Part shown: piece after piece, positions 4,661-63,275 of the stretch
Position numbering within the stretch: position 1 is the first letter of the stretch
Layout of the letters: every line of letters starts with the position of its first letter
The notes under the pieces: model-generated
The model's input: only the letters and a program-made list of their open reading frames with translations
What the model was told of the DNA's origin: nothing
The model's database searches: none
Position numbers and translations under genes: made by a program
Assembly (NCBI GenBank): GCA_032718475.1
Contig: JAUCBJ010004780.1
Location: 1 to 64,000, forward strand
Direction: 5' to 3'
Length of the DNA: 64,000 bases
Source: Nemertoderma westbladi
Lineage: Eukaryota; Animalia; Xenacoelomorpha

Positions 4661-4699
4661 ACATTTTTGGCTTTAAGAGATGTGTTTTTATTTTAATTG

Positions 4700-9649: not shown

Positions 9650-10204
9650 TCAATATTTTCCTTTTTGACAAAGTTTTTTAATTGCATTCCCTCTACCGTC
9701 ACGTCCAGATGCTAATTCATTGCTGTAACTGGTTACCACGACAACTAAGTAAATATGCAACAGACTGCTAACTCCATATCCAATTGATTCCAAAATCCTT
9801 GAAATATTATCTCTGCTGTAGAATTTTCTATCATTTACATCCAACATTTGATCTCTGTTGTATGGTTGTCGGTAATTTCCGTATAACCAGAGAGTTACGA
9901 CGCTGACCATTGAATAAAAAATCCACACCATTGACATCACAACCCACGGATAAGTTAGATATCGCTCACCGCTATTAGTTGACAATATCAGACCAATTGA
10001 AGCGACAACCAGTAGTAACTGTATCCATATCGACACATCGCCTACCACACCTAGTAACACAGTACCCGGTCCGTATGATGACGTCACATTAATGTCGGAA
10101 AGCAATCTCACTATAACTCCGAGTACGCAGGTAGTTATAGTGTATAAACCACTGTATATAACAGCGTCACGCAGATTAGCGCACCAACAACATTTATTCA
10201 ACAT
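9650..10204 (-). CDS. LAPTM/DUF4728-like four-TM protein, divergent copy 3 (184 aa, intronless, tail-less)
   Basis: MLNKCCWCANL, LLLVVASIGL, YPWV and YLVVVVTSYSNELASGRDG align with copies 1 and 2. Confidence 0.8.
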   Translation of the reverse strand: MLNKCCWCANLRDAVIYSGLYTITTCVLGVIVRLLSDINVTSSYGPGTVLLGVVGDVSIWIQLLLVVASIGLILSTNSGERYLTYPWVVMSMVWIFYSMVSVVTLWLYGNYRQPYNRDQMLDVNDRKFYSRDNISRILESIGYGVSSLLHIYLVVVVTSYSNELASGRDGRGNAIKKLCQKGKY

Positions 10205-18304: not shown

Positions 18305-18679
18305 TATACAGTTATAATATACTGATATAGCCTAATCTGATATTTCAGTAAACAGGTACGGTCTGATGGTAGCCTACCGTACACCTTATTTCTGTATTTG
18401 GGTTAGCCTATACTGATAGGAGTCAGCTGTCAGGGTGTAGGCAAGGACTACTGAAGCGGCTTTGGTGTAGGGTATATACAGATAATGGTAGATGTGAAAA
18501 GGAACTGGTACCAGTAGGCAGTAGCAGTAACTACATAATGTTTTTATGACAACTATAATCTGCCTGCTACATTGTAACTGCACATTGATTGAGATACTAT
18601 GCTGGCTGAGCTTAATTAACAAAAATATTTTGCCACCACCATGAAATTCACAAATTGGCAAGCCCAATGCAGCCGCATT

Positions 18680-19975: not shown

Positions 19976-20724
19976 CAGGGCCGTATTTAGGGGGGGGGGG
20001 GGGGGGGCGAAGGGGCCGAGGCCCCAGGCCTCCCACCACAGGGGGGCCCCCACCACGATCCCACAACTATAGGGAACGACCGAACTACAGAGGAGCCGAA
20101 CATTTCCAGAAAAGTATACTTCATCCGTAGTTACAACCACAAGAGACAAGCCAACGAACCACCCAAACACATCTAAGCAGGAATCCATTGTTTCTAGTGT
20201 TTTACTATATGTTTTCAGAATGTGCTAAATAAAGTAATTAATAAAATAGGAAATTTCCGGAAAATGTATAGGAAATTTACGGAAAAATGTAAAGGAAATT
20301 TCCAAACATTTTCTGACTCACATCCCTACTAATATATATTTACAACTACATTCAGGTTTCTTTGAAAGGTATTTGCAATAAATAGCTTGAAAAGTTAGGG
20401 TAATGAAAACGAGAGAAAAATGTGTCTTTCAGTAAAGTATAGTCTTTGAGATTCCTCGGCGCCCCGTATGTGCAAACCCCATACAGTACAGCCCAGAGCC
20501 CCCCCCCCCCCCCCCCCAAAGTTTTCACCAAAGATACAAGTTACAGAAGGGCTGAATCTAACCAAAAAAGTAAACGAATTAGTAGGCCTATATGTACAGG
20601 TTATAAGACAGAAATATGCGCTATAAAACACTTAATAAAGATAAATTAAAAAAAAATAAAAAAATCTTCATATATAAAATTCCAATAAAAAGTCGACCGA
20701 AAACTGAAATCCTGGTATTCTGCA

Positions 20725-21035
20725 CATGGGCGGTATGATGGGGTAAATGAGCTCCAAACACCACATTGTGGCGATCGGCTGGTGATTCTTCCTTAACCTT
20801 GGTAGTTGGTTGTCTTTTTCGCCCAATCAGAAAGTTGATTGATTTCCATGCCTGGGATGATCTCCAATCGCCTGTTGTCGTCTTTGAAGACATCAACCTC
20901 CTGGTTGATAAGCTCCTGTAGATTATCAGAGTACTGCGTTCAAGGACCCACAGTAGATATAACCTTAACTGCATTCTTGACAGCTGTAGTCCGTTTGAGT
21001 AGGGACCTTTTCTGTGCCTTAGTGAGAACTCACTA
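20725..21035 (-). mobile_element. RTE LINE remnant (linker between endonuclease and RT)
   Basis: SQAWKSINFLIGRKRQPTTKVK..SPADR resembles the RTE linker; frameshifted. Confidence 0.5.
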
Positions 21036-21445
21036 AGACTACGTCTGGTATGTAGTGCTGTACAGTAGTGTAAAAAGAAACTTCTTCTAAGACACCCATA
21101 ACTTAACAACTTAAGCAACTTTTAAGAAAGGCAATAAGACATGATTGGATAGATAGATTAACCAACCTAATGTACTGTAATTAGACTTACCACAGAGGAT
21201 TCCCCCTAAAAAGCTTTATGTAACAAGGACCCCCTTAGAATTACGTAAATAAGCTACAAAGCTTTACTGTAGTGCAATTGTGCATCTAATCCTATAATTA
21301 ATTAATTAAAATTAATTAATTTCTTGTAGACTATTTTTAATATTCTGCCCAAATCATGAATTAATTATTATTATTCCTTAAAATATAAATACAGCATGTT
21401 GATTGCCCTACATCAAATAAATATCGTCATATTTTATGTTTACAG

Positions 21446-27400: not shown

Positions 27401-30400
27401 TCCCGGAACACCATCGGAAAGCAATGACACGATTTAGATTGTCATCACATAATCTACGTATTGAGACTGGGCGGTGGAGTAGAATACCTCATGTGCCCAT
27501 GTAATGGCGTAGACATCCAGGACGAACAACACATGTGCCCATGTAATGGCGTAGACATCCAGGACGAACAACACATGTGCCCATGTAATGGCGTAGACAT
27601 CCAGGACGAACAACACATGTGCCCATGTAATGGCGTAGACATCCAGGACGAACAACACATGTGCCCATGTAATGGCGTAGACATCCAGGACGAACAACAC
27701 ATGTGCCCATGTAATGGCGTAGACATCCAGGACGAACAATGCATGTTGACTAATTGCGAAAAGACAAAACATATACGGGACAGCTGCAGCAATATAGACC
27801 TATCACTTCCGGGTATTTACAACAAAGATTGTATTGTAGTAGCATTTAAAATTTTTCAGATTGCCATGGTTAAGAACTGATGTCATGCTTAAGGTTAATC
27901 TTAACTTGTCCTATTTATATTTATATTAATATTTACATACTTAATTTGAAATTGTTTGATAGGCTGATATTTGTATATGTTTTGGAGTTTGATATGGTGT
28001 ATTACGTTGTCAGTAATTTCGGTTAATATGGACAATTGTCAATAAACATTAGCCTACTACTACTAACAAGGACTTAGAATACATAGATTGGAATACATAG
28101 AATATATACTATGTTCTAGAAGTCCTTGCTACTAACTACAGTATTTCCAGTATATCACCACGTCATTATTTGGTTGTTCCAGAAAATGTAAGTACATAAC
28201 TACAAATAATTCCCCACAAATAAATAAAATTAAATTCATCATTGTCCATAATTAGCACTTTAATGTTTTACTGCCCATGTTTTATTATTTCCCTGCCATT
28301 AGGTCTCGAACTAATAACACAGCACCTATCGGTCGACTGAGCTAGAATTTTGCACTTTCTATCATAAATTTAGGGATAGAAAATAGTCGAAAGATGCACT
28401 TTCTTGCTCTGTTTCCGGACTTTTCAGATAAAAATATTTTTTTACAAGAATGACTCGCTGAGAAAAAATGGCCCGTATTTTCGGCTGGCCCTAAGGCACG
28501 TGCCTTACAGTACAGTATATGCCTTAAGGTTAATCCGGCACTGAACAAATACAGTATCAATACAGTATACAGAGAATAAAGTATAGTATACACAGAGAAT
28601 AATATTTTAAAATGGTGACCTATTGTTTATGTGGCTATAAAGACAAAACTTTCTTGAACCGAAAATTATCCGCCGTGGCTTTGCATGCATGTCGGTGTAT
28701 TCCTACTTTTTTGTGTTTTCAATTTCACGCAAATATTGTACGCTAACGTTCCAGATGAAGGAGCTAAACATCACCCAGGGACCGGGAGCATTTAATTCTG
28801 GACCCCCAGTAGCCAATAACAGCTTTATGTACACGTTCGCCGAACAGGGCCAATACTATATCGCCTCGCAAGGGGCGCCTGGTTTCATGAGCGTCGTATA
28901 CGTTATTGAAAGCGGTGAGTAACCGAGTAGGTACCGGTAGAAAGATATTAATATAATCTGTATTCTTTACTTAAAGTTGGTCTTACATTATTATTAAAAC
29001 GTTGGTATAATAAGTTTACAAGTTATCATTACGTTTTTTTATTTTGGTTAACTTAGCACAGTAATTGACTCTCACATGGGAACGAGCCTGTGACTTCCAC
29101 GTTGGAAGTCTGAAGTTCTAACCATTCCGATGGCAGAAGATTAAAAATGTTGATGTTCTATAAATTCCCCATATTGATGGGTTGTATAGTATTTCCGTAT
29201 TTTACGTCCTGCCAGCTAGTGGGGGCGCGGATGGGGGCGGGGGCGGTTGGGACCCTCTATCCAGTCAATATTGAAACGTACCGTCGTGGAGAAAATGCAC
29301 CTAAATATGTCATATAAGCAAAGTGTATTCAAAATTTACTGTTAAGTTTATTATTATCCAAACATATGGAACATTAACGGTGGGACACCATGACATTACA
29401 ACACCTTAAAACATTATTAATATTATTACTATTATTTATAGGGCGCGGTATACATAATGCTCCTAGGCGCGTTATTACATAAATGGTATATAAACCCTGT
29501 TGAAGGTACATTAAAACGTACTTAAAAATCTATAAATTAAAACCATGTAGGATAGGTCATATATATATACAATGAAAAAAGTAATCATCACTCATTTATT
29601 ATTTAGGTAGAAATATGTAACATGCCACTACAACCTTCTCCTCTTCCCTTAATTGATAATTAACAATGTTAATTCTTTAATGGCCCCTTGACTCCTAACA
29701 TTAATTACTAATTTTATGCAGCCACTATGCTCAATCATATTGTACTTTGGGTCGGAGTTACTATGCGAATTTGCTAAAGCCTTACCTTTACTCAATGGGA
29801 ATTTTGATATACTGTGCAAAATGAAACCACACCTTAATACTGATAATAATGATTTTATTTTTATAATATTTAAAACTTTCTGAATATCGCTTATTTTATA
29901 GTTTTCATAATAAATTATTCATTGTAAATAATTATTTATTCCCAGACGATAGAGTAGATACGCCAAGAATTAGCTCAGATAAAGCAGGTGGGATAGTAGA
30001 ACTGAATCATTGCGTCCGATTAGAATGCGACACAAAAGACGCAATCATATTGTATACAACGGACGGCACAATACCTGATTACAAGCCGGGGGTTAAGGTT
30101 AGTTACTTATTATTCCAAGGGAATTGGAAATATTATTATTTTCTCTTGCACTAACATTAGGTTAATTGTAATTTCACAACGTAGATAAAAATTAGCCCAT
30201 TAGTAAAATGAAGGCAAATGGACCATATGAAGTGAATATATATGAAGTGGTTTGGCTCCATATTATTTCTTCTTGGAAGATATGAAAAAAATTGGCAGGA
30301 GAGTAGTCTGAATTCTGTTACAATCAGAGAGTATCTGATTGCCTTGCTTATTGAACTCTATGAAGCTAGCCATGGAGCATTCTCAACCTGACTACTGGCG

Positions 30401-33400
30401 CAAAGCATCCACTGAGAGTGTCGCCTGCTGATACGCCATAGTGGGGACATTTCTGGTACTCCACTCTCCCTTACAGGAGACGCCCTCTAGATGGCGTTAT
30501 CTGGCTGCTGTCTCAGACCTTCCTCAGGGCAATGTGAGGGCACTGAGCCCTGTAAGTAGCCCCATAGCAAGCATTCCTGCCAACCCAATTATGTAATAGG
30601 GAAACATGCATATATATGTGAAACTTTTACATCAATCATGTTATGAGTAGCGCAAATAATTTATTGATTTTAATAAACTTTACAAATTTGTTTAATAATT
30701 TAACTTGAATTAGTTAATGAGAAAAGGATATTAGTAATTTCATTTGCAATAGTATTATTTCAGAAGTTATAATTTTTATTATAATACTAAAATATTTAAT
30801 TATCAATTCGTGTAAATTTATATAATTCCAATATAGGCCTACTGTATAAATAGGCCTACGCATAGGGCCTACATCAAGTAAATTCAATTTGAACTGGTTC
30901 ATATAGGGCCTAATATACTATTAATAAATGTATATTATAATATACCGGTATTTTATGCTTACAAAAAGACCTAATGAAACTTCAAAACCGAAAATTATGT
31001 TATTAAAAATGCGGCATTTATTCAGAATTTCAGATAATTTGCCAAAATTCTACCTTCTTCATAAAACGAACAACTGCAGCTGTAAATTCAAAACATCATC
31101 CACTACCTTGGTCTCCCCCACTCTGCCGCTAACGGTGCATCACAGATTGTTTTTGTCCAATATACCGTGTAACCAATCTTATTAAACTCGTCATTCGACT
31201 GCTCTCGGCCTCGACTTTCCCGACCTCTGTCACAACTCAACTCTTATGCCACTTTCTAGTTGGGTCTCCGGCAATCTGTATAATTATGATCACTGATTGT
31301 TAATTTTAGATTTATAAAGCTGATAAAGGATTCAGTCTTCGTCGATCGGGGTTCTGTATAGTTCGAGCGATGGCGTTCAAAGAAGGAGTTCTAAATTCTA
31401 ATGAGTTGATATCGAAGTAAGTCACAAAACGTCAATGTAAACTGAACATTAATGTAAGAGCCTTCGCGCAGCACCAAGTCCATATTAGCCTCATCGTAGC
31501 AAAAAATTAGTGGACCTAGCCACACCCCTTGGTGGCCGAAAGGGGAACTATATAAGTCTAAATTAGACTAAATTATAATCTTGTGATAGACTACATGTCT
31601 ACGACATAGTCATTTGGTTCCATTTCATCCGAGATTGACGTACTTATTAGAGTCCAAACATTTCCAACAATGACTACAGGCGAGGCGGTCCACTATTCTT
31701 CTTTCCTTCCCTTGGCCTTTATTTCCCCTTTCGACTCCTAGACCTACTCCCCCAGTTCCCTTTCACTCTTGCTTCCCTTTCACCTTTTCCAAATAAAATT
31801 ATACCGCTATGCACTGGCGTGGTTTCGTGGCTCCCACAATTTAAATGTAATATTCGGTAAAACCGACTGAAACATTGTTGTACTTAAGGATACCGACGGA
31901 GATGGTCTATTGATTGATTAATCACACACACAACATAAATTCTCTAGATTTAACCTTCCGCTTCAATCCTTCCTGCACTAACAGTATATTATGCTATGTA
32001 AAATCATAATCATAAATAAACATCTTATTTATTCAATTTGTAATGAGTTTGAACGGATACTGCGGTGTGTCGGGCTGATTTATTTATTTATGAACCACCA
32101 TATTATAAATACTATAAATCATTATGTATGTTCTTTTACCTTCATTGTAAGTATAATTTTAAAAATTTATTTTATACATTTACATTTCTTTAGGACAATA
32201 CCCACGAAGCTAAAAGCTGAAATCATTTTGTGTGAAGGTCGATATTGTTAACTTATTTTATGATTAGGAGATTTTTTATTATGGAAAATAAAGATCCATT
32301 GACGAGTAGCGGTGGCGAAGGAATACAATCTAATGACGAATCTACGGGAACAACCGTGGTTGGAGAGAACGGTGACGAAACGCGAGACGAAACGAGGGAC
32401 GAAACTAGCGACAAAACTAAGCCCCAAGACGAAACGAAACTGGTACGGAAACATTCGTCGCCGGCGAGACGGGAATCCCAGCCTATCGACGTTGGGTTAC
32501 TATGGAGACAAAACTGCAAACCAACAAATATACGAGCTTGGATAGCAGGGGATGGCTGTGTTAATGTTGCCTGGCAACAGTCCTCAGATAGAGAAGCATG
32601 CAAGTTGATTGGAAACTACCAGGTATGTTACCATATGGTGGGATACGGTGTAATCATAGATCTTGTCTACTAAGTCTACTTTAGGAATATAATAGTAGCG
32701 GGTGAGATGGGTAGCTGGCAGGTGGGTTACCATATGGTAGCTACAAGCTAGTGATCCGTTCCATTCACAACACTACCCCTTAATGCATATTAATGCAACT
32801 GCCCTTATCGGTTTCCACAAAACTAATGTATATTGTATCTCATTACTCTATGGGATAATTCATTGCGTACTGCAGAAATCCAAGGAGGATCCCTCCTTAC
32901 CAACACAGCATGCGATAGAACAATTATTTTATTGAGAAGGAAAGAAACTTCAATATCATTGAACTATCATAGCTGATGTTAACCTTCGACTCACGGTAAT
33001 CTATAATAATTACACTTCCTGTGTCAGGATACTTGTTCTCAGGAAAATAAGAGACAAGCTACGATAATAAGTAAAGTGGATGATGATTGATAATAATATA
33101 TGACGGATATTATGATCTAACGTCATATTATGACGTTAGCACTTTAGCAGTATGTTAGCATACAGTCGTTAGTTAGGCCTGAACTTATAGTCTAGTACCA
33201 TTCATACACAAAGTAATATGGTGGTACGTACTGTACATATTTTCATTCCAAGGTCTACATTGAAGGGATAACTTACACAGACCCACTTCCACCATCCATT
33301 ACATCGGTTCAACTGTCTGGCTTCGAAGGGGGCAAGTCTTACAACGTGCAGGTGGCGGCGTTACATCACGAAAACTTTCTACCTCCAGTATTCTCAGATA

Positions 33401-36346: not shown

Positions 36347-36589
36347 AAAAGTATTGAAGATGAGTTACAGAATATAAATTTTTGTTGAGTTGTTGGTGGC
36401 AGAATGGAATACTGTACAGGAATAAGAAAAACAATCTACAGACATATGAGCAAATTACTATCACACTACTGCACTACTGTATGACAGGACAGTACAAAAC
36501 GGAGAACTACAGTAGGCCTACTTACTGAACTCTAGAACTAGGCTATTTTGTATGCCGGTACGACCTATTCTGCTATTGTTATATTCTGC

Positions 36590-37760
36590 TGTTCTCACGG
36601 TGGGGCTGAAGCGGCTGAACCAACTTTTTATAAAAGAAAAATGCCCGGCCAAACTGATTTCTTTTCTAGGGGCACTTCAACGCCCTGATTCCAAAAATGA
36701 TATTTTCAAAATCTTTTGCCAGAGTCTCTTTCTTAAAATTACTAAATAAATTAGTAATACTATTTATAATAATGCTATATATATTATAAAAAATTCCCAG
36801 ACCAAATGATAGCATTTTTCGAGACTTTTAATCAACCTGGTTCCGAATCTGTTAATTTTATAATATTTCGTCGGTGTCTTTTAGAGTAATAATATTCTAA
36901 AATAATATTAAATATACCGGTATTAATATTATATAGTAGAACTGCCTAATGCTCAATTCTGCAATTGTAGTGAATATCAACTTCTCTTACTCCTATTGCA
37001 CTGATATTAGTATCATTCGAACCGCAATGGTCGATTTAGTGGGTGTTGAGTGTTGACATCATCAAAACAACGGCAGAGTTATTACTTCTCGAGATATCGG
37101 TCAAAATGTGAGCGCTGAATTACACCTAAATTTAACCTAAATTAACAAATTAACCTAAATTACACTAAGGTAAGCTAGTTAATGCAATATATCACCATCA
37201 CCATATCACTAAAAATCAGACTTCGACATAAATAACAGACTTAGGGAATATGCTTATTTGAACCGCAATGGTCGAATTAGTAGTTGTAGACTCCATCAAA
37301 ACAATAGTAGTATAAAAAAAATGATATTTTTAGTGATATGGTGATATATTGCTATTAAATTGCTGAAGTTATGTGCTCATTTATGTGAGCCAGCGCTCAC
37401 ATTTTGACCGATATCTCGAGAAACAATAACTCGATCATTGTTTTGATGGTGACAACCCACACTAAATCGATCATTGCCGTTCGAATGATACTAATATCAA
37501 TGCAATAGCAGTACGGTAAGTTGATAATCATTACAATTGAATATATTAGCCAGTTTGCTAATATAATATTATTTAATATTTAATTACTCTAAAAAAACCG
37601 ACGAAATATTATAAAATTAACAGATTCGAAATCAGGTTGATCGAAATTCTCAATAAATGCTATAATTTGGTCTGGGCATTTTTTATAATATATATAGCAT
37701 TATTATAAATAGTATTACTAATATAATTTAGTAATTTTAAGAAAAAGACACCAGCAAAAG
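36590..37760. mobile_element. Foldback/MITE-like element with ~400-bp imperfect inverted arms
   Basis: 36712-37116 is the reverse complement of 37391-37760; the right end appears truncated and I found no TSD. Confidence 0.8.
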
Positions 37761-39331: not shown

Positions 39332-39427
39332 CGCCCTGGTAGCTCAGTGGTCTTAGGACACACACTCGGCTGATGATAACCGGAAGTTTGAAACCTAGGT
39401 ACCGGGTTCGAGCCCCAATAGGGGCGG
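39332..39427 (+). mobile_element. tRNA-derived SINE head or tRNA pseudogene
   Basis: A-box TAGCTCAGTGG and B-box GGTTCGAGCCC with disrupted stems. Confidence 0.55.
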
Positions 39428-39519
39428 TTGATATTTTTCGCTATGGAGAGCATTATCATAATGTACTATAATATTTATAAATAATGTTAACTGGAAAAGC
39501 CACGATCTAAGCACCCGTC

Positions 39520-40724
39520 ACAATCAAGGGCATAGACTGATCAGCTGATAGAGGAATTGCTTTTGGAAGATCAATACCTTTAAATGGGAATGGTGTGTAT
39601 TAAAAGTGGTTTGGGGGCGGTAGCGCTCTAACTCTAACTAAATAGTTTTGGGCAGTTGGGTGGGAGCAGCTTATTTTGAATCAAAATTATAAGTTAACGT
39701 TCTTAAGTATTTCGTTATATAGATAGGAATCCGGTAAATTGACTGATTGACAAAATTTGTAAGTGGTTTCCTCTAGGAAGCGGTAAATTGACCAAAAATA
39801 CAAAAATTTTATAAGCAGATACAGAGATAAGTGGTTTGCCATTGGAACTGGTAAAATGACAATAAAAAAGTTAAAAATGGATGCCCCCAAACAGGAACGT
39901 CCCCGTTTTTTAAGTAAATTACGAAAATTATTATTGAGCAATTATTACACAGTGTGTATTTTTAGGAATTGTGGCATTTTATGTAGGCCTACTAATTAAT
40001 ATTTTAATTTAATCAATACATCAATAATTAAATAAATTTGTTCATTATTTGGCATTTCTTAATACCGGTACTGTAATACCGGTAGTTAATTAGCAGTTTT
40101 AGTTAATTAGGTACCGGTAATTGATATATAGAATATAACAGTATAACCTTGGGATCTATATGCGAATCAGGTGTCAGGTCTCATCTTGGATCTTGTATTG
40201 TTTTTCTATCGTTATTACTGTTGTTGAATTGAATAATTCGTTTAATTTCCTGTACATAATGGGTGGAAGTAAATAGGAAAATTAGGCCTACCGTTAATCA
40301 CAAACACAGATTACATAAAACTTTAAAATTACAGAAATAATACGTTAAAATTACTAATAAAAATAAATATAACTTTAAAACGTACCTACGTACTGATGTA
40401 TATGTAACTTGTTAGCTGAGATTCTTAAAAAAAGCTCAAAATTATTAAAAGATACGAGAGACTTGCAACTTAATACAGTAATAAAAGCAACTGTATTACT
40501 ACAGTACTACTATTCAGCTATTATCTGATTATGTTAATAAACAAACTTTAACTGTTCAAAATAATAAGATTTATTAATCACCCAATCAAGGGCATACTGG
40601 CAATCTGGCATAGACTGATAGACTGATAGAGGAATTGCTTTTGGAAAAACAATACTTTTTATGGGAATGTAGGAATGGTGTGTATTAAAAGTGGCTTGGG
40701 CTTGGCAGCTTGGGGGCGGTAGCG
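39520..40724. repeat. Dispersed ~105-140-bp direct repeat pair (39520-39625 and 40583-40724)
   Basis: CAATCAAGGGCATA..GAGGAATTGCTTTTGGAA..GGAATGGTGTGTATTAAAAGTGG..GGGGGCGGTAGCG in both copies. Confidence 0.75.
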
Positions 40725-41426
40725 TAAAAAATATTACATGTATATACAATACAGCAATAGGCCTACTGCAATAGGCCTACCGGCAACCGGTACCAGCCCA
40801 GCCTACCCTGCTACAGATATCACAGTATCAGGCTGTCAGGACAGCAGGATATAGTCAATCAGTCAATAGTTGAGTTTCTTGTATTCCAGTACCGGTATTC
40901 CTATAACTGTATGTATTGAATATAAGGCTAGTACGGTAGTAAAATAAAGTAAAAGTTTAGGCCTATAGGCAAATAGGCCTACCACAGCAGCACAGTACCA
41001 GTAGGCCTACACCTGTACACAGTAGGCCTACAGAAGTAAAAACTGAAAAATATTATGGTACCGGTAGGTGTAACTGCAACTGTCTAAGGTAAATTATAGG
41101 CCTGTGCCTGTAGGCCTAGTTGTAGGGCTGTCAGGTTGTGTTTCTTGTAAGACAAGATTCATACAGGTAACATACAGACATGACATAATGCTGTAATGAT
41201 TTAGGCCTACAATGGCTGACTCCTGGCCAGCTGACTGGCTGGGCTGTGGGCTGGCTGCCCGGCACTGCCTCTGGTTCCGCTTTAAGCTGTCTGACTTCTG
41301 ACTACCGACAATACAATGACGACCGGTACCGTACTGCTGTACTGACCTTGGACAGGACTGTACAGTACATACTGACTAAGTGTAAACATGGTCCCACCTG
41401 GCGTAGTGTAGTGGCATGCAGTGTTG

Positions 41427-42935
41427 TATGGCGTCTCTTTAGGGTCAATATTCAGTGTTTTAATATTTTTTATTCAGTATAAATTTACATTCAGTAATAA
41501 TTAATATCTTTCAGTGTTCTACAATATCTTTTAGTAATTAATAAATTATCGTTCAGTAATAACTGAATTATCTTTCAGTATTTACTGAATTCATCTTTCA
41601 GTATTTACTGAATTATCTTTCAGTATTTACTGAATTATCTTTCAGTATTTACTGAATTATCTTTCAGTATTTACTGAATTATCTTTCAGTATTTACTGAA
41701 TTATCTTTCAGTATTTACTGAATTATCTTTCAGTAATACTTAATTATCTTTCAGTAACGTATTTATCTTTCAGTGATTATCTTTCAGTATTTACTGAATT
41801 ATCTTTCAGTATTTACTGAATTATCTTTCAGTATTTACTGAATTATCTCTCAGTATTTACTGAATTATCTTTCAGTATTTACTGAATTATCTTTCAGTAT
41901 TTACTGAATTATCTTTCAGTATTTACTGAATTATCTTTCAGTATTTACTGGATTATCTTTCAGTATTTACTGAATTATCTTTCAGTAATACTTAATTATC
42001 TTTCAGTAACGTATTTATCTTTCAGTGATTATCTTTCAGTATTTGCAATAGCACATCAGTATAAAATCACTCGTTATAATAAATTCCGTATAAATTCCTT
42101 TATCTCTATTGAATTCAATAGGCCAATCACAAAAAAGGCATATTCTAGAATATATAATGTTAATTTACGAAAACTGTCGACGGTGCAGTATGGCCTATGC
42201 AGTATGAAGTTACACTAGGCTACACAGTTTGTTGTTAGTTATGTATTAGCGTGATATATTTAATTAAGTGTAAGAAACTGAGGAAGAATAAACTGCAATG
42301 CCGCGTTTTTGTGGAGCATGTGGTTCAGCAAATGAACTGAATTTCTGTACTAGTTGCGGTCGTTCTCTTTTAGTGGATGATACTCCCACCATTCACAATC
42401 GCAATCTAAACGAGAATACAAATCCATCGACCTCGCCACCACCTATGCCAAATGCGTTTACAGTAGATTTGGTAAGGGAAGCTGTCCGAGCTGTCAGTCC
42501 ATACTGCTAGCACCGTCGACAGTTTTCGTAAATTAACATTATATATTCTAGAATATGCCTTTTTTGTGATTGGCCTATTGAATTCAATAGAGATAAAGGA
42601 ATTTATACGGAATTTATTATAACGAGTGATTTTATACTGATGTGCTACAGTATTGCAAATACTGAAAGATAATCACTGAAAGATAATTCAGTAAATACTG
42701 AAAGATAATTCAGTAAATACTGAAAGATAATTCAGTAAATACTGAAAGATAATTCAGTAAATACTGAAAAGATAATTCAGTAAATACTGAAAGATAATTC
42801 AGTATTACTGAACGATAATTTATTAATTACTAAGATATTGTAGAACACTGAAAGATATTAATTATTACTGAATGTAAATTTATACTGAATAAAAAATATT
42901 ACCACACTGAACATTGACCCTAAAGAGACGCCATA
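41427..42935. mobile_element. Foldback-type non-autonomous DNA transposon, IS3EU-like
   Basis: Termini TATGGCGTCTCTTT / AAAGAGACGCCATA and 6-bp TSD GTGTTG (41421-41426, 42936-42941). The long inverted arms contain 22-bp tandem repeats, and the centre holds a truncated zinc-ribbon ORF (42298-42510). Confidence 0.85.
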
Positions 42936-43889: not shown

Positions 43890-45785
43890 AATCCTTTGAA
43901 AATCCTATTCCCTAAATTGTAGGCTACCAATAGCGGTACTGCTGTACAGTATGTCATTTTCAAATAGGCTCCATTATATTTCGATAAATTATCCAATCGC
44001 TTGGGGTAGATATTATTTCAGCAAATCACTAGCGCGAGGATTTACTAACACATAATTTGTGTATTTAAGGGGGGGGGGGGGGGGGGGTACACCATTTTGG
44101 TCAAAAATATGTCGAAATTTTTTTTATGATCTATTACAGTACAGGCCACCAGAAAAAGCAGATTTCATCCAATGTGATCACATGTGAACACATTTGTTCA
44201 AGTCATCTGATTGGCAGGTTATGGCGAGTTATCTTCTAGATCACACAGCAGGAGAGGCTAACTTGCTGGGACCGACAAAGGCTTTGTGTGCCCTGCGCCT
44301 GTATGTCTGATACCAGGTAGATGAGAGAGCCCCCAGGGCGTAACATTGTGGACATGGGCTGTATTGGTAGAGAGAGAACTACATACAAGACCACATGGAG
44401 GTTCATGGAGTGTATGGGAGTGGATGGATGGAGGAGCCTAGACCATTGAATAATTACTTTAGTGCAGGGAGATGTCGCGCCATTAGTCTGACACCGAGAG
44501 GGCACTGAGAAACACCAGAAGATGCCTTAACATCACTAACTATAGGCCTGCCTACTAGACACTATTAACCGCACACTATAAAGGTAAACAAAATCCTTAT
44601 CGCCTTTCCAGCTGCAGTGAGTGACAGTTCGCGGCAAACTACAGAGAGTTTCCAGATTACTAAGCGTTTCAAAAGTATTCAATTGTATCCTTTGGCGAAA
44701 ATTTTTTGGTTGTTGCCAATTCAATTATGTTCAATTATGTTCAATTGTCCCGTTCAACAACATTACATTACACTGGTACACATTTGATAAAATGTGTTCA
44801 CAATTGTACAAATCTGCGTTTTCTGGTGGCCTGTACTGTATAATGCACCATTGAATGGTGTTTCCAAATCTGAAAACCGCTATTTAATAGCTCTTTTAGT
44901 TTTTAAGTTATAACAATTTCCATTTAGCGATTCCTATTGAAATTACTATTACTATGTATAATGAAAGGTCGATTATCTCCAAATATTTTTTTTATGAAAT
45001 TGTCAACTTCAAAACCCTACTACTTCTACAATTTTTGAGCAATTAGTAATAGTGCCTATAGGGGCCAACAAATTGTACATAGGCGTATTAAGGATTGGCA
45101 CTAAATTAACAACCTACTGTATATACTGTACTTGCAAATAAATACAATTGTCGTGTGGGCCTCAAGCCGCACCCTAGTTAACCAACAACTTTATATGTCA
45201 TTTTAAATTTTTAAATATGAAAAATAGCATTAGCGACCTTAAAAATAATATGCGTCCCTGAAATTCAAGATCGTCTGACCAGATCCTGTATTTAAAACAT
45301 CTCTGTAAATTTTACTGGTAATTTCCAAATTTATGGACTCACAACCCACAATATTGTCCTGTTCCATTTCGTTAGCAATAAATTCTATACTTTCTAATAG
45401 CTAAACTTTCCAGAATGCCTCTATAGCAGCTGTTGATTTCCCCAATGGTATACTGACATCCCGAACTTGCGAGAATCTGGGATGAATAGTCTCGTCCCAA
45501 GTTAGGCCCCGTGACGGATCATCGATAGATCCTTCCTCACCCTATATAACTGTTGATTTCCCCAACCCATAGAGCTGTGATACAACCCCCCCCCCCCCCC
45601 CCCCTCCTATTACTATCCCCGTCTTCGAAATACATTACAAAGGCTAATATTCGTTAAAATCTTATTCGTGACAAACAAAGCAGCGACTTATTACCGACAT
45701 AATTGCGATTTATACTGCCTATAGTTCTTAATCACTGAAAATAAAATCGTTGAACGTTTGAGTCACAGATATAAAATACAAACAA

Positions 45786-48508: not shown

Positions 48509-48828
48509 TTTCGTTACCGGTAATTTGTGATTAGGGTACTGTTCACCGTTCTCTAGTAGGGCAGTATGCAGTAGGGTGTACGTACGTGTCGTACAGACTA
48601 CTACACTACAGCACTACACTACACTACACACACACTACATCATACATGTACTGTTGTACTCTCTCTCAGCAACTCAGCTGCCCGATGCAGATCAGGGATG
48701 GCGTTTGGGCGTAGGTTATTAAGAACAGTAGAATAAATTATCAATTCACTGTACAGCTGTATGTACAATGTACATTGTACCAGTGCTGCAGTGCACAGTG
48801 CAGCAGTGTCAGAGTGTACACGCACAAC

Positions 48829-50943
48829 CATGGCCTACTATATATCTGTATATACGGCCTAACAGGTTGTCGATTTGGCCTAGAAAAAAGAGGCCATTGC
48901 GTTCTTCGGGTCCGACGAATTTGTACAAAAAAGTACAAAAAAATACAAAATAGTACAAAGGTATACAAAAGAGTACAATAAAGTGCAAAAATAGTACAAA
49001 AGAGTGCAAAAATAGTACAAAAGTGTACAAACGGGTGAGAAACGCTTGCAAAACGTGTATCCAAGTGTAGTTCAAATCGTTTAGAGGAGCGCACACGATG
49101 TGCAAAATAAAACAAAGCATTGTCTGATTGTGGGGCGAGCCATGCATTGAGTGGGGGCTGATCTAGCTATCTAGCAGTCAGAGAGTAGGCCCCTATTACA
49201 GTATCACAATACAATCTTATGAGTTTTAATGCAGCCTTTTGTGTTCAAAAAACACAAAAAACGGTCCCAAGCTCGCAAAATTGCAGAGGGAGAACTCAAT
49301 AAAGTTGCAGATAGAGGCGTACATACAGACATACATAGCCTACATAATGTAGCATACACAGTCTATCCTTCAGTATATGGGCTACTTTAAGACTATGACC
49401 TAAATTTTGAGTCTCAGTTATAGGAGTTTTATCTACCCACCAGCCCACTGCATAGTATTGCATTATATTGTATTACATATTATACGAACTGTAGCCTATT
49501 TCTACTTGTAAGCCAGTCAAAATCTACATGAATCAAAGTTCTGTCAATCATTTTGTAGTGACAGACTGACCACAGAACCAAGGCCGCTAGTGATTTGACA
49601 CTGACACTGTTTTTTTTTTGTACTCTTTTGTACTATTTTTGCATTCTTTTGTACTATTTTTGCACTTCATTGTACTCTTTTGTACTATATTGTATTATTT
49701 TGTACTTTTTTGTACAGATTCGTCGGACCGCGTTTCTTCCGTATAGCATCGTTTGAATGGAATTATTGTAAGCCTACTGCCTTGGGGTAAAAAACGTTGC
49801 AGAATTAGTTTTTTACAACGAAAACACAATTAACCTCAGGGCTAGACTGTATTTTTACTATGTTACTCTTTATTTACAGTAGGCAATCTATGGATGTCTA
49901 AAATGGCTGAGTCACATAGTGTGCGAAAATAATCAACATAAGTGAACTTCTATTTTCAGATATTACCCACCCAGAGAAGTTATTTGCCCGCTTTTTAATA
50001 GTGGAATAGTTACGCGACAAAATCTGAAAATAACTGCTGGTTGGGTAATAAGAACTGACACAGACAGACAGATTAGGATACAGCTATCTGTATTAGAATA
50101 CAGATAGCTGGATAGGGGGGGGGGGGGGGGGGGGACTGGACGCAATAAATTAATTTGCCAAGGCGGGTTTTGCGTCGAGTTCCCCCCCCCCCCCCCCCCC
50201 TGTCTCTATATTTTCCAGTTTTATAGCAAATTATATAAACAATAAGCACCCAGTCTGCCAGTTACTAGTTTGACTCTTTGACAGTTTGAGACAATAAAAA
50301 ACAAAATAAAAATAAAACCGTGACATCATGCATGAACCACCCCTAACTAATATCTATTATCTAGTATTCAATACGCAATTATTTAACTCTATTACAGCAA
50401 CTTTGACCGCTGTCATTGTTTAAATCCTGTTATCCCTGTATCCTGTCAGCCTGTTTTGCACCCACACCCAACTATGCAACACTTATTCACCATACTGCCA
50501 TAGTTCAATACAGCAATAAGGGCCTATTTATGGGTTATAATCTCTGTATCTACAGATCTATATGCCAGTTTTAAATATGGTTGAGCGTTGAAGCTGCCGG
50601 TCACTACAGCACTACTGGCCTAGGCGCTGCGCTAGGCCTACTTTAAAGTGTAGACTACGACTACGCTACCAGCTGACAAGGCCTGAAGGCTGCAAGGCTA
50701 CAGTTTGACGCATCGCCCACGGGTACTCCTGTACTCTGCCGCAGCTCTGTTGAGTCTGTTCTGCGGTACTGCAATGCTCTATTCTATGCTCTACAACAAA
50801 CTGCAAAATCAATACCACCAGACCACTGGACCAGTACTGCTATCAGTACTGCTGTACTGTGCAACTGTAGAAAACTGGCCTCTTTTTTCTAGGCCATATC
50901 GACAACCTGTTAGGCCGTATATATAGTAGCTTAGTAGGCCATG
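48829..50943. mobile_element. Non-autonomous P-superfamily-like element upstream of syntaxin
   Basis: ~70-bp TIRs beginning CATGGCCTACTA and including TATACGGCCTAACAGGTTGTCGAT.TGGCCTAGAAAAAAGAGGCCA; 7-bp TSD GCACAAC/GTACAAC (one mismatch). Confidence 0.75.
48908..49730. mobile_element. MULE-like MITE nested in the P-like element
   Basis: TIRs GGTCCGACGAAT.TGTACAAAAAAGTACAAAA with inverted AGTACAAAA subterminal repeats; imperfect ~9-bp flanking duplication CGTT(T)CTTC. Confidence 0.7.
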
Positions 50944-51379
50944 GTACAACACGTACAGTACAGTACACTTCCCGACTACGGCAGTACGGTAGCCTTCTGG
51001 TAGGCCTACCGGTAGGTCGTATGTCTGTATGTCAGTATGTACTTCGTATGTAAATGTTAAACTGGAATATGGCTCTTGGCTGCAATAACAGAATAATGGC
51101 TGAATGGGTCTACCCGATCAGTTGCCATCTTCCTTCACGGGTTTCGCCGTATCCGTATCCGTTCGCGGTACATGGTTGTTGGATGCGGACGACCAATCTA
51201 AACATTCTTTATAATTTAAAAAAAATTGGATAAGCCGTTCTGTTCTTGAGTGATCATCAAAGATATGTCAGACATCGGATATCTACAGTACCTATCTTCT
51301 TGACGCCGCCTAGAAAACTAACTCAGCAGCCAACCGTGATTTATTTTTGAACTGTTTTTTTTTTTCCACCAACCTACAG

Positions 51380-52369: not shown

Positions 52370-53178
52370 ATTTCAGCCCACTAGCGGTAGACTGGAGAAC
52401 TGCCGAGAGAATACCATCCCAACAAAGATGCTACCTATGTATGGTCTACGGTCTAGCATGTCTGCCAAGTATCAGCTTGAATGGATAAAATAGAACCAAA
52501 TGAGAGAAAGTTTTTACTTTCAGACATTTCAACCTCTAGCGGCAAACTGGAGAACTGAGAACCGATCAAATTCTTCACACAGACGAACCATGTGGTCTGG
52601 TACATATTTTAACGGTTAACTGGACGGTTAATACTTTCATACATTTCGCCCTCTAGCGACATACTGGAAAACTGCAGACTGACCGATTACAGAGACCACA
52701 AAGATACAGGATGTGTTCTAGCACATATGACAACTTTCAGCTTGTATGGATCATAAATAACGGAATGGGTCAATAATTTCACTTTCAGGCATTTCGCTCT
52801 CTAGCGGAAGACAAGAGAACCATAGACTGGTTAGCCCCCTTTGAATGCCACAGCTAATGGTCTAGTACGTATCTGCCAAGTTTCAGCTTGTACGGATTAA
52901 AAGCAAAGAAATTGGAGGACATTTAATGTTTAGACATGTTGGAGACTGATGAACTGGGTTTCTTAAAGTTTTTAAAAAATCTCACCTTTTGGTCCTGTAA
53001 TAATGCCAACAAATTTTCAACACGACACGGCTTTAAATCCGACAAAGTTATTAGCATGTCAAATCGTAACGAAAACTACGTCGCGGAGTCAACAACTATT
53101 TGCCATTATTGTCCCACCCCTAACCCTAAAATTGTCAGTTCACTAAGGCTCCGGCAACGTCGTGGCTCACCCCACAAA
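52370..53178 (+). mobile_element. Helentron/DINE-like element with degenerate ~150-bp internal repeats
   Basis: CTAGCG..ACTGGAGAACTG-like units at ~52377, 52533, 52649 and 52797; the 3' hairpin ends GGCTCACCCCACAA, like 13660-13680. Confidence 0.5.
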
Positions 53179-53761
53179 GCGCGAGCTGTATAATCTTAGC
53201 ACAGTACAGCCGGTTCACTGTATTATTTACCTGTACTGTACGTACAGGTCTATAAACATGGATAAATAGGCCAGGTACAGTACCGTGAGATTTAGCCATA
53301 GTGCAGTAGTGCTGCAGTGCACTGACTACTGCTTCCTGAATACGGGCAAATACGTCCCACATACGGTAGCCTACGGTAGGCTACGGGAACTATTTCAAAT
53401 ACGTACACATACGGCAAAAAGACAGACCTACAGATAAAGCTGTAAAGAGCTGTACCGTACAAGAGCTGTATTTGCTGATTGATGGCCCAGTGCTGCAGTG
53501 CAGCAGTGTGCAGTGGGTTATAACCAGGACTGAACTGACCAGCGTCAGTAGGCCTAATCTAATACGTAGCAAGCAACGTACAGACGTCAGACGTAGGCCA
53601 GTCTGCCAGTACTGCAGTATGCTATACCTGTAATACTGTTACTGTACCGTACCAGCCTGCCAGCGTACTATATCTGTATATCTGATATCCTGATATCAGA
53701 AGCGTTTGGCCTACCGGTACCGTTATAGGCTGATAGTGCTATATGTTCGATATTCTAAAAA

Positions 53762-56608
53762 ATGGCAACTTTATCATCGAAGGAGCGAAATATGAGATAT
53801 TTCGATAAGCTGAAAAGGGAGGGACGTATGGATGACTATCGTAGAAAATCTAACACTAATAAAAGGTTGCAGAGGAGCAGAAGAAAGGAGACAATGTCAG
53901 AAGCAGAGTTGAAAAGGGAAAGAGTTAATAATAGGTTGCGTCGACGTATGTACAGGGACCGAAAACGTGATAAAGAGATCCAACGGCCATCAGCGCAAAA
54001 CGCCAGGTGAGACATTAATATATATTATATTTTTAATCTGGAATGATATATCTGTATATGTTACGTTATATTTTTTAAACCAATGTATAACACAATCCTA
54101 GGTAATAACCGGACTGGGGGCCCTCCAGTCCAAAACAATAAACAGTCACTTTACAAAATGAAGGGAAGGAGCAGGTTACAGAGGCGGGCCTTTCTAACCA
54201 AAACAATAAACGGTCACTTTACCATATCAGGGAAAGGAGCAGGTTACAGAGGCGGGATTTCTAACCAAAACAGCCGGCATGACCGGTCAGTTAGGTCAGA
54301 GTAAACAACACACAGCACAGCAGAATAGGTGGAGGGCCCTGAATCCGGATTGTACCCAATCCTATATTGGGCCTACAAAGATATCTCTCTACAGCTTTAT
54401 AACTTTTACAGTTCTGCAGTTCATTTGCAAAACTTAATGCTACCAGTATATGCAATAATTATTTTAGCAAGAGCATTACTTATTACTATCCTAATTGTTA
54501 TATATAAACATCAGGCTTAGAGGTATGTATGATTCATGTAGGATGTGTATACATAAACATAACATTTATGTATTACCGGTACGCAATACATCCATTACAA
54601 TCTAACTTACTTATCCCAGATTAGTACAGCAAACAAATTAATAAACACACGGACTAAAAATATAAAAATACCTAAAACAATAAACAAATATGGCCACAAT
54701 TATTTTCTAATCTCAACAGCTAAACTGTGGAATAAACTACTGAACTACCGAGACAAATACGAGAAAATCTTTCAGAAAAAAAAATTTCTTTCTAAACTCA
54801 AAGAACATTACACCACTCAATTCGAAAGATCTGCAATAACATAAAAAAGGAAATAAATACAAGATTAAAAACAAATGAGATTCCGTTTACAAAACCACAC
54901 AACAAAATAAAGTATAATAGTAACAATAATGGAAATAATGGATGCTTTGTATTCAACATAAATATATGTGTGTTTGTATGTCCATGATTCTTCATATGGG
55001 TGTGTGTTCATTTTTTTGGAGGGGAGGGGGGGGGGGGGTATTTTTATTTTATTTTATTTTTTGCGTGGAGAATATCTATATCGATTGTGTGTCTAATCCT
55101 GGTCCCTGTGCAAATATATAAATTATAATTATTGATATATTTTAATATGTAGGCTAAGTTACATATAGTACAGGTACCTGTACGTACAGTACATAGTGGT
55201 ACACCTAGTGCACACGGGTACTGACTATTGGTTTTATTAATTATCAGTTGGTGCTACCGTAGCATTTTAACTGCCTTCAGCCAGTTCTCTGGCTGAAGTT
55301 CTAAACCAATTATACAAAAAAATGAAAAATGAATGAATGAAAACCTTGACTGCAATTGATTGTGTAGCTTTGGTGTCCATCTATTGTACTGGTACTGTTT
55401 CTACAGCTACTACAACTTCTACTCTACTGAACGCCGCCATTCAGGATCTGTAAACCGGGACAGTACAGCACATAATGACATCAGCAGTGGCGGCTGGCGC
55501 CCTCAACCATATTTACACTAATGTAACCCTGGTGCCTGGTTGGCTAGCCTAAATCATAAATCTAATAAATTTAGCGGAAATCTTCACATTACCACAACGT
55601 ACCTATCCGATATCCCGTGCAATGTCAATAACTAATTATTACGACAACCTGCTGACCTGTTTTTATTGTAACCGTAGAGCAGAGCCGACTTATAAAATTA
55701 TAAATAAAACAACATGACGATACGATGATCGATGATTCTCAACAACTTCATAATTTCATTATTTTCCCGAAGCTACAGTTCTCGCAATTGGTTCACCATC
55801 AAGCTTTTCATAATATAATAAGGTAATAATAATACCTTTGATTAACTTGAATGAGTCGGGAGTGCCCATAATAAATTATAAATCATTATATACCGGTACA
55901 TCTTTAATTTTGTTATTTTTCAGGTTCAATATTGAAAATTCCATTCCACTGGAATTTGATTCAACGCGGAGTGAAGAAGATGAAACAGTCTGTAATATTT
56001 GCAATAAATCATTTAAAAGCAGAATCACCGTAAAGATTCACAGGAGACTAGAACACGTGTATAAATGTGACAACTGTATCTTACGGTTTGTTACCCATTC
56101 CAGTTTCCAGAGACATAAATGCGATAATGCGAATTGTAACAAATCATCAGCAACTTCCTCCAAGAACCGACAACCAAATCCTAATCGATCCCCCCAAACC
56201 CCCGTGGAAAGAACTATACATGTAAATACCGGTAAAGTAAATCAAATAACTTCTCGGAAGTTAGTTACTGTTATGGTACATCTCAACCACAAATGCGATA
56301 TGTGTTCTTCGACTTACAAATCGCCGGCTTTGCTCAAGGATCACATTGTATCTGTCCATGGTAACGACTCTAGCAATGGTAATTATTCGCAATCACCCAA
56401 ATGCGAACCTTCGTCTAAAAATAATTCTAATATTACCTGCAATACTTGCAATAAATCGTTTGCAGATCTGCTTGTCTTAGAACGACACATGATTGAACAC
56501 GAGAGTTACCTGTGCAGTGAATGCGGTATGCTATTTGCTACTAAAGGCAGCCATTCTCGGCATTATCGTAAGTGTTGCCGTTTAGGGGAAAACGATACAA
56601 CTCAGTAA
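53762..56608 (+). CDS. C2H2 zinc-finger protein with a basic helical N-terminal exon (~309 aa, two exons)
   Basis: Exon 53762-54006 ends AG|GTGAGA (phase 2); exon 55924-56608 follows TTTTTCAG in matching phase. It contains about five C2H2/C2HC fingers. GTAAGT overlaps the stop codon, so a further exon is possible. Confidence 0.8.
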
Positions 56609-60939: not shown

Positions 60940-63275
60940 GGACCCCAAGTACCTTACTGATCTAGACTTTGCTGATGACTTATAAGTACTCTCAGAATCA
61001 CTACTACTACGATCGGCATGCTGCATTGCAGCTGCATTATATATATATTTATATTACATATATGTATATAACTCAAGAAAGCCATGGGCTATCCACTATG
61101 CTTATTCACTCCATGAGGCCGCCAAAGCACAAGATTATGCACTGACTGGTCCTCATGGCGATAGCAATGTCCTGCAAAGCAGAGGGGGCTTTGTTCAAGT
61201 GTCAAGCTAGGGAAGAATGATGGAACACCTCCAATGGCAATGTTGTATAGAGTCTGATTGGAGATGTGTTCATTGTACTTGACACAATGAACCCGGCGTA
61301 GCATTCTTGTGAAAGTGCCATTCAGAGATTTGGTATCCTCTGCAGTTAGAGACCAGCATGGATTCCCATATAAGAGTCTGGTACTACTACTGCCATAAAT
61401 ACTTGAACCTTAAGGTTCCTTTTTATTCTATGGGACTTCCAACGCTACCCATGCCTTCCCCTTACGTATCCGAGGTCGGACCTGACTTTCTGATCCTTGA
61501 TCCCAAGTAGCAGAAGTCATCTACGTGCTCAAGCAAGCCGTTCTTAGAGCTTATGCCCGTACGATCAGACATTTCTTGAGGACTGTCTGTCTAGGTTAAC
61601 TGTCATGATTGTGGTCTTTTTGGAATTTTCAAAAAGACCATCACTAGAAGCAATCTGGTCCAATGATCAGAGGAGCCGTTGGGCTCCCTCTAGTGATTCT
61701 GAGAGTACAGTACTCCTAAGTCATCAGCAAAGTCTAGATCAGTTAGGTACTTGGCAGGATTTCCTTGACTTCTGGAGCCAGTAGGGGGTGTTACCATCAC
61801 CCCGGAATTTACAAAAAGACCATCACTAGAAGCAACCTGCTCCAATGATCAGAGGAGCCGTTGGGCTCCCTCTAGTGATTCTGAGTACTCCTAAGTCATC
61901 AGCAAAGTCTAGATCAGTTAGATACTTGGCAGGATTTCCTCGACTTCTGGAGCCAGTAGGGGGTGTTACCATCACCCCATCTTCATTAAGATGGTCTAAG
62001 GACATGCGTAGAACATAATCAACCACAATTACGAATAAGAATGGTGCAAGTATGTCACCCTGAAGGACTCCCCATAAGACTTCGAATGGATCTGTGTCAC
62101 CATCAGCAGTAGCCACAAATGTGGTGGGACCATCGTACAGTGATCTGATAGCTGCAATAACTTCTTCAGGAATCCCATATGCTGCCAGTATGCTGAACAT
62201 ACGTGGTCGGGAGACTGATTCGAAGGCTTTAAAGAAGTCAACAAAGATAATAGTATTGATAACTCTTATAATATTGATAACTTTTCGATTATCCTTCCAA
62301 GTGCCAGAATAAGCTCCATGGTCCCACGACCTTTACGGAACCCATTTTGGTTCCCACGTAACAGTCTCTCAACAGGATCCCTGATCCGATTTAATAGAAT
62401 GTTGTATAGCTTTGCAGCAATCGCGATTAAAGAGATTCCACGAAAAGATCCGCCTTTTTTTAGGTTGCCCTTGTTTGGGGCTGGGACCAACGTATTTGTT
62501 TTCAGTTCTCAGTACTCTCAGAATCACTGGAGCCCTATGGCTCCTTTGCTCATTGGAGCAGCCTGCTTCTGGTGTAGGTCTTTTTATAAATTCCAATATG
62601 AAACTGTTGACAGTGAAACTTGATAGCACTCAAAGAGATGTCTGATCGTAAAGGCATAAGCTCCAGGGATGTCTTGCTTGTGTATGTGGATGACTTCTGC
62701 TACTTGGGATCATGGATCAGAATGTCAGATACGTAAGAACAGAATAGTCTGTCCAGGATTTGGAAGTCCCATAGAATAAAACGGAACCTTAAGGTTCGAT
62801 TATTTATGGCAGTAGTAGTACCAGTACTCTTATATGGGAGTCCATGCTGGGCTCTAACTGCAGAGGATGCACTTTCACAAGAATGCTGCGCCGGGTTCAT
62901 TGTATCAAGTACAATGAACAGATCTCCAATCAGACGCTATAAAACATTGGAGGTGTTCCATTAATCTCCCCTAGCTTGACACTTGAACGGAACCGGCTCT
63001 GCTTTGCAGCACATTGCTTTCGCCGCGAGGACCAGCCATTGCATAATCTTGTGGCCTCGTGTAGTGAATAAGCATGGTGGACAGCCCATGACTTTCTTGA
63101 GACTTAAAGGACACTGGACATGAATATGTGGATGATCTAGCAAATGTCATGGGTGATAGGGAGTTGTGGCGGCGACATTTTGTCGACAAACCGGCACAGC
63201 ATTCTTAATATAATGTAATATACATAATGCAATGCAGCTGAAATGCAGCATGCCGATAGTAGTAGTAGTAGTACT
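60940..63275 (+). mobile_element. 5'-truncated RTE LINE (sense copy), split by a second RTE copy
   Basis: PKYLTDLDFADD at 60943-60980 continues at 62511 and ends in a (TAG)n tail at ~63257-63273. Confidence 0.8.
61003..62510 (-). mobile_element. 5'-truncated RTE LINE (antisense copy) inserted into the sense copy
   Basis: RGISL..AAKLYN, NQNGFRKGR, GVLQGD.LAPFLF and LTDLDFADD; (TAG)n tail at ~61003; 18-bp TSD AGTACTCTCAGAATCACT (60985-61002, 62511-62528); internal ~170-bp tandem duplication. Confidence 0.88.

Follow-up and report, generated by a model that had tools for sequence, protein, structure and literature searches.

Probable transposon excision scars crowd several fields, some beside genes, in a 64-kb window of the Nemertoderma westbladi genome

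Excision footprints of cut-and-paste transposons are known from experiments, event by event. The canonical footprints of Sleeping Beauty, TACAGTA and TACTGTA, consist of the target TA, three terminal bases of the element and a second TA, and arise from staggered cuts followed by end-joining; in the available part of that report eight footprints are described, including shorter forms, and 4-base cores are not among them (bioRxiv 10.1101/659086). For Tc1 of C. elegans, the accessible text of the sources gives TACATA and TATGTA, a net gain of four bases (bioRxiv 10.1101/2022.08.01.502254; PMC13148408). Target duplications of five bases are described, in the accessible portion of a further source, for hAT5 and for the CMCT clade with Transib, the CMCT ends being mostly CA..TG (PMC12730594). 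In teleosts, hypomethylated domains carry linker 6-mers such as GCTAAC, which lie in conserved linkers at a spacing of about 200 bases and have been read as nucleosome-positioning signals, with a footprint origin not proposed in the text available (PMC5607494).

The DNA considered here is a 64-kb window, i.e. the whole stretch that was analysed (positions 1-64,000 of Nemertoderma westbladi contig JAUCBJ010004780.1), and all counts are within it unless metagenomes are named. For the word counts tandem repeats were masked, leaving 57,181 bases, and the observed numbers were compared with those in 100 local dinucleotide shuffles. The initial annotation had quoted several TA-x-TA strings, all of which are found where it placed them, and had expected an excess of such words over a dinucleotide-shuffled background, which in this window holds for five classes: TACAGTA/TACTGTA (71 observed against 12.4 expected), TAGGCCTA (24 against 0.8), TACCGGTA (16 against 0.7), TA-CCG/CGG-TA (16 against 6.8) and TA-GGC/GCC-TA (16 against 7.1), with none of the 100 shuffles matching the observed count of any class. 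When all 16 flanks with the same dinucleotide on both sides are compared, a large excess around CAG, GGCC and CCGG is seen for TA only, the other 15 flanks of the CAG core staying at or below 2.2-fold. Bare GGCC and bare CCGG are barely enriched (1.2- and 1.1-fold), and therefore the unit is the entire TA-core-TA word. TAGGCCTA and TACCGGTA are the top two 8-base palindromes of the window, and TA-CCGG is all-or-none, 32 of its 47 strand-counted cases ending in TA. In the GG and CC classes the 4-base cores reach 24- to 32-fold and the 3-base cores 2.2- to 2.4-fold; the CAG class is the reverse, the 3-base core being dominant and TACATGTA occurring 5 times against 2.3 expected.

As far as the available text allows a comparison, the likeness to Sleeping Beauty extends to identical 7-mers, a TA duplication around three terminal bases and a gain of five bases at one TA. 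In contrast to Sleeping Beauty, the putative scars of the window are natural and accumulated, they include the extra cores GGCC and CCGG with 3-base forms and are joined by a 5-base class without TA, and the shorter footprints are not enriched in the window (TACATA 82 against 75 expected, TACTA 202 against 192). What is shared with Tc1, judging from the accessible text, is a small insertion that remains at TA after excision, whereas the +4 form, TACATA, is the one just given as unenriched here.

The proposal that the units behave as insertions at a single TA is borne out at two sites of the window, in the second relative to outgroup copies, and in one pair of metagenome loci (L016 and L120, taken up below). 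The two window sites are the following, with no strand assigned here or in later lists unless it is given:

42646..42652: TACAGTA, facing plain TA in the opposite foldback arm, which matches over 138 adjacent bases
61706..61712: TACAGTA in an RTE duplicate, five bases longer than two outgroup RTE copies (19790 and 60945)

The first is a clean, non-tandem gain of five bases relative to the opposite arm. The second had been presented as one unit against plain TA at 61886, which stands for the gain of five relative to the outgroups but not for the pairwise alignment, where the gap is 7 bases; judged by the two other RTE copies, the copy at 61706 gained 5 bases and the copy at 61886 lost 2, and the gain reads equally as a tandem duplication of AGTAC. 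For the GG and CC classes, the only single-TA insertions in the window are composite cases at 53461 and 36913. None of the sites was observed as empty, as occupied and as scarred.

The most clustered word class has no TA requirement. It consists of any five bases, CAG or CTG, and the identical five bases again (hereafter N5-CAG/CTG-N5, or N5), and it occurs 81 times against 1.9 expected from 40 shuffles; at flank length 6, CAG is absent from the top cores. The similar numbers of CAG and CTG cores (38 and 44) fit what is expected if either element end may be kept. The flanks have a loose palindromic preference, with A at position 2 in 83 of 164 and G in 6. Only 3 words belong both to this class and to TACAGTA/TACTGTA, so the two classes are distinct. 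Within 4.7 kb (39500-41400, 48700-51110 and 53290-53700) lie 60 of 82 N5 words, and the variance/mean per kb is 7.3, compared with 1.7-1.9 for the GG and CC classes and 1.4 for the TACAGTA class, which is spread nearly evenly along the window. Per kb, N5 density tracks that of the GG and CC classes (rho 0.44 and 0.41, p<0.001) and is weakly related to that of the CAG class (rho 0.22, p 0.08); coding DNA holds 2 N5 words in 9.5 kb.

The duplicated target of the N5 class is five bases long and is not the TA of Tc1/mariner elements; the class works like a Tc1 scar but is not one. With hAT5 and the CMCT clade, as the accessible text describes them, it shares the 5-base target duplication. In hAT and Transib excision the flanks are sealed as hairpins and no bases of the element are known to stay behind, and the hAT flank-hairpin footprint has an 8-base duplication whose inner bases are complements of the flank rather than a fixed word. 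A hAT hairpin reading of the 8-base indels was considered; it fits the case at 53488 letter for letter, yet it is unspecific window-wide (the complement/complement class numbers 10 against 1.9 expected, but other classes are equally high), and it is superseded because, unlike in hAT and Transib, the N5 core is always CAG or CTG whatever the flank.

Repeat copies also record N5 insertions in succession. The copies at 39529 and 40607 have a scar in common and then a different second insert each, one of them nested in the first. Of the inverted arms, 48821-48896 holds one 8-base insert and 50876-50951 another; with both taken out the arms align without a gap, and one of the cores is AAG and not CAG. 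These cases come from targeted alignments, the automatic repeat-pair pass having called no N5 scar because both copies carry inserts.

The classes are found side by side in a field next to a C2H2 zinc-finger gene, which was also compared with contigs from four sequencing runs, representing at most three samples (runs X2 and X3 are from the same sample):

53190..53760: scar field 5' of the zinc-finger gene, with 11 TA-x-TA units and 9 exact N5 words (10 after nested collapse)
53249..53254: site that is empty in the window; a run X4 contig is 8 bases longer and reads CTATA-CAG-CTATA
53362..53383: chain of four TA units (CGG, GCC, CGG, GGC), the longest of the window; alternatively a 10-base tandem repeat
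53453..53469: TA-CCG-TA, then a TA site with two fillings, 9 bases in the window and CCGG in a run X3 contig
53488..53500: N5 scar CAGTG-CTG-CAGTG, of which 8 bases (53488-53495) are missing from a run X3 contig
53549..53563: TAGGCCTA, then a 5-base tandem duplication (53554-53558) that is missing from a run X3 contig
53598..53697: five N5 scars (53598, 53607, 53652, 53669 and 53685; two overlap) and a TA pair (53640-53651)
53729..54003, plus strand: first coding exon of the C2H2 zinc-finger gene, with ATG at 53762 and a GT..AG splice to 55921

Collapsing the TA units and N5 words removes 137 of the 571 bases of the field (24%), and 500 shuffles of the same stretch average 1.2 TA units, 0.03 N5 words and 6 bases removed. 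This 24%, composed of stereotyped words of 5, 6 and 8 bases, likely represents piled-up excision scars. With 11 units, the 600 bases before the zinc-finger ATG are the second densest 600-base window for TA units, the densest being 40751-41350. That a spliced gene follows the field is shown by a run X4 contig, which begins at 53729, directly after an AG, and joins 54003 to 55921 at GT..AG; the run is labelled 'DNA?', and its contig nevertheless has the spliced joint. In run X4 contigs, 26 bases (53324-53349) are also joined to 53721/53729, right after AG, and are possibly a non-coding first exon or leader within the scar field.

The field varies among the samples. Among the 12 of 17 indel rows listed for the compared stretch, those of 4 or more bases within the field make up four events, two of which are the 8-base N5 scar, the others being TACCGGTA swapped for another filler and a plain duplication; these allelic indels are unpolarised, and deletion at microhomology of 2 or 5 bases could have produced the short forms. 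Over 53366-54092 (727 bases) one run X3 contig has 34 gap letters (18 among the rows listed) and 3 substitutions, and another, over 55274-56210 (937 bases), has 9 gap letters and 14 substitutions. At 53461-53467, two TAs in the window enclose C and a copy of neighbouring sequence, where a run X3 contig reads TA-CCGG-TA; this reading combines three table rows (53461, 53462 and 53464), and two fillings at one TA are as expected of two repairs of a single break. At 53249 the run X4 contig may be a paralogous copy, because 53132-53358 draws contigs of about 7-fold depth, depth not being copy number. The named TA units had been expected to dominate such indel polymorphism, and they do not: they account for one of the four events listed in the field and, among well-flanked indels of 3-30 bases in 22 repeat pairs, for 2 of 22. 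In the zinc-finger intron, the 8 bases of an N5 scar (54735-54759) fall in a 19-base deletion of a run X3 contig.

Further fields are recognised at four places:

39500..41400: second field, with 22 N5 scars, and 20 TA units in 40000-41420
48700..51110: third field, upstream of syntaxin, with 29 N5 scars and two inverted arms (48821-48896, 50876-50951)
36350..36620: small field 5' of V-ATPase B, with 5 TA units and 2-3 N5 scars
18305..18560: small field 5' of eIF3k, with 4 TA units and 2 N5 scars

The bases collapsed come to 20% of 40000-41420, 22% of 50400-51120, 18% beside V-ATPase B, 14% beside eIF3k and 13% beside syntaxin, and to 2-4% in three other stretches. Beside the second field, no gene or Rfam family was identified by inspection of open reading frames by eye and an Rfam search; nearby, at 39340-39430, a tRNA-like box A/box B was noted by eye, probably the head of a SINE, with no Rfam match at gathering level. 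As for the composition of the fields, they had been described as built of stacked TA units, a description that does not fit the most clustered class, with its 5-base duplication and no TA requirement.

The fields are probably hot zones where several families of cut-and-paste transposons inserted and were excised again, many times over. From the words with their sharp edges, their clustering and the several present/absent cases, we infer an excision origin. By the rule that applies to Sleeping Beauty and Tc1, the transposase would cut within the element, a few bases from its end, and joining of the broken ends would then leave the duplicated target, the end bases and the duplicated target again. 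TA-CAG/CTG-TA would derive from CAG-ended, TA-targeting elements, for which the window offers a candidate:

44137..44838: candidate donor of the TACAGTA class, 702 bases, with CAG ends, inverted repeats matching at 20 of 20 terminal bases, and a TA flanking each end

The other three donors are predicted from the words: GG-ended, TA-targeting elements for TA-GGCC/GGC/GCC-TA, CC-ended ones for TA-CCGG/CCG/CGG-TA, and a CAG-ended element with a 5-base duplication for N5-CAG/CTG-N5. The joint pile-up of N5, GG and CC words may reflect accessibility to transposase in the germline, or local hopping, and scars would be tolerated in the hot zones where whole elements are not.

The hot zones as such certainly exist; a general rule tying scars to promoters is not certain. 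The genes of the window include eIF3k, OATP, syntaxin, NOP16, V-ATPase B, a GNAT and the C2H2 zinc-finger gene, and the best matches of eIF3k, spread over many animal phyla, are about 50% identical, none exceeding 52%. OATP, eIF3k, NOP16, syntaxin and the GNAT have one open frame each and V-ATPase B has two (14394-58394), a gene set that is unusually intron-poor for an animal. Two further observations concern the gene content: a nuclear RNase P RNA gene lies at 30292-30583 on the minus strand (Rfam, 138 bits), with four TA units 250-360 bases upstream (30834-30950), and 3150-10255 holds three related minus-strand membrane-protein frames, one with a DUF4728 match and the first two about 82% alike in DNA. 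An enrichment of TA units just 5' of genes, as initially proposed, is found for five housekeeping-type genes, which were selected after the data were seen (23 units against 10.0 in unique non-coding windows, p 0.03), but not for all ten genes (30 against 20.2, p 0.13). For N5 words the 5' windows of all ten genes hold 19 against 9.1 (p 0.12), all of them at four genes; NOP16, the GNAT, OATP and syntaxin have 1 TA unit each in their first 600 bases. The chain at 51001, which had been assigned to the syntaxin side just 5' of the gene, is actually 2.5 kb from the ATG at 48508. TA units reach 5.7 per kb in the 5' windows, against 3.2 for the remaining unique non-coding DNA, 1.5 for repeats and 0.47 for coding DNA.

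These densities bear on a reading in which age and retention alone are at work: footprints would be kept in old, constrained, gene-near non-coding DNA, young repeats would be too recent to have collected them, and no targeting would be involved. The lower density in repeats than in unique non-coding DNA agrees with it, as does the insignificant 5' excess for all ten genes, but retention leaves unexplained why, among the words listed, 20000-22000 has 6 TA units and 28000-29000 has 7 with no N5 word in either, why the variance/mean of the N5 words is as high as 7.3, and why the scars of the zinc-finger field vary among present-day samples. We regard it as unlikely.

The search for donors bears on another reading, in which the words are the work of host break repair, staggered cuts in open DNA being filled with a fixed short word by oligonucleotide addition. 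Families with TA target duplications and CAG, CCG or GGC termini had been predicted, and in the window the CAG type is represented by 44137-44838 and the CCG and GGC types are not. The candidate has no frame of transposase length (its ORFs are below 100 amino acids), and no transposase was seen anywhere in the window. A scan of the 64 kb for inverted repeats and target duplications gave no TA element with GG..CC or CC..GG ends, and neither type turned up in the metagenome loci described below; for elements with a 5-base duplication, the strict scan of the window gave 0 candidates and a loose scan one weak, chance-like pair. Two candidate donors were rejected. A 303-base skip with TA..TA ends (54062-54364), found in a run X2 contig, is really the absence of a GG-ended 256-base element with an 8-base duplication (54101-54356), combined with loss of left flank, and 48855-50917, considered as a CGG-ended TA element, has arms that continue beyond TATATA, which is therefore not its terminus. 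The element at 54101-54356, presumably Merlin-like, lies in the zinc-finger intron and is missing from a run X3 contig, the run X2 contig being also without about 39 bases of left flank. Other elements of the window were noted in passing: 25648-28543 is a 2.9-kb, CAG-ended, hAT-like element with an 8-base duplication that holds a retroelement fragment and a 42-base tandem array, and the foldback at 41428-42934 has an 8-base duplication, 22-base arrays in each arm and, between the arms, a short C-x2-C frame (42292-42510); in one arm, a 4-base insert turns TGCA into an 8-base palindrome.

Outside the window, a triple TAGGCCTA pattern was estimated for 4,200 metagenome stretches against 80 in prokaryote genomes, which speaks to recurrence only, the sets differing in size and the loci being selected by motif. 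In 120 metagenome loci, likewise chosen by motif, the sequence outside the match contains TAGGCCTA 216 times against 3.6 expected, TAGCCTA/TAGGCTA 162 against 33.5 and TACATGTA 33 against 7.5. The 70 indel rows listed for repeats shared among these loci, in which some events appear twice and 9 low-complexity loci are excluded, include one clean GGCC insert (L016 versus L120, +6, in another organism) and one CTG event (L005 versus L058, +5). N5-CAG-N5 is not outstanding there, ranking fourth of 32 cores with many cases in tandem arrays.

For host repair one may thus cite the three of four classes that are without a donor in the window, the plain duplications and templated filler that the zinc-finger field also holds, and the clusters of TAGGCCTA in unrelated metagenome contigs, a scan of the 120 loci (9 low-complexity ones excluded) having found no GG-ended TA element. 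Against this, cores that are fixed on either strand, combined with a fixed duplication of 2 or 5 bases, are what element ends and target duplications give, a CAG-ended TA element is resident in the window, and a host enzyme adding CAG, GGCC or CCGG is not known to us. Host repair as the source of the words therefore appears quite improbable.

It is very improbable that the palindromes, as motifs comparable to the 6-mers of medaka hypomethylated domains, were selected in housekeeping promoters for protein binding or nucleosome positioning and were multiplied by slippage. AGGCCT resembles the ZFX motif, and in form several events (61706, 53554 and the 53362 chain) are tandem duplications, but the N5 words share no sequence beyond 3 bases and so form no motif, TA-CCGG is all-or-none, the inserts at 42646 and in L016/L120 are non-tandem, and words are lost or swapped among samples. 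The unexplained linker 6-mers of accessible fish promoters would favour such motifs, and the likeness consists in short words of obscure origin crowding accessible promoter DNA, but unlike the teleost words, as the available text presents them (PMC5607494), those of the window are indel-polymorphic and mostly less than 100 bases apart.

Repeated insertion and excision by transposons had further been thought to amplify itself, each scar supplying a new TA as a target. The stacking of TA units is in line with that idea: 14 pairs share a TA, compared with 4.7-6.9 under random re-insertion at local TAs, an excess of about twofold; 300 simulations were run for each of four block sizes, and none reached it. 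However, G directly precedes TAGGCCTA in 30 of 48 strand-counted cases, and a context preference of this kind could therefore yield an equal stacking excess. As the main cause of the fields the idea fails; TA feedback is a minor, secondary effect, because the most clustered class needs no TA. New TAs would thus contribute only a small feedback, and the greater part of the effect would have to come from germline accessibility or local hopping.

TA scars are already known in their chemistry, and what the window contributes is the occurrence of four classes in one gene-proximal field, where they take up a quarter of the length and vary among samples; in the literature searched, with most subscription journals, Repbase and supplements lying outside it, no accumulated footprint fields and no 5-base CAG scar were found. 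The N5 class points to a transposase chemistry of which no description was found. More tentatively, and as a possibility we would not yet favour, an undescribed enzyme, combining a 3-base stagger like that of Sleeping Beauty with a 5-base, non-TA duplication and homing to germline-open chromatin, might lead the traffic that wrote between a fifth and a quarter of the sequence in some promoter-side DNA, the scars forming a growing record of past accessibility and a main source of regulatory indels. Enrichments of k-mers in animal promoters, such as the fish linker words, need not be protein-binding motifs. Apparent scars account for 13-24% of the bases in several stretches near genes and for half or more of the indels listed in one such stretch; if the excision reading is true, transposition would, as a by-product, be a major source of mutation in regulatory DNA.
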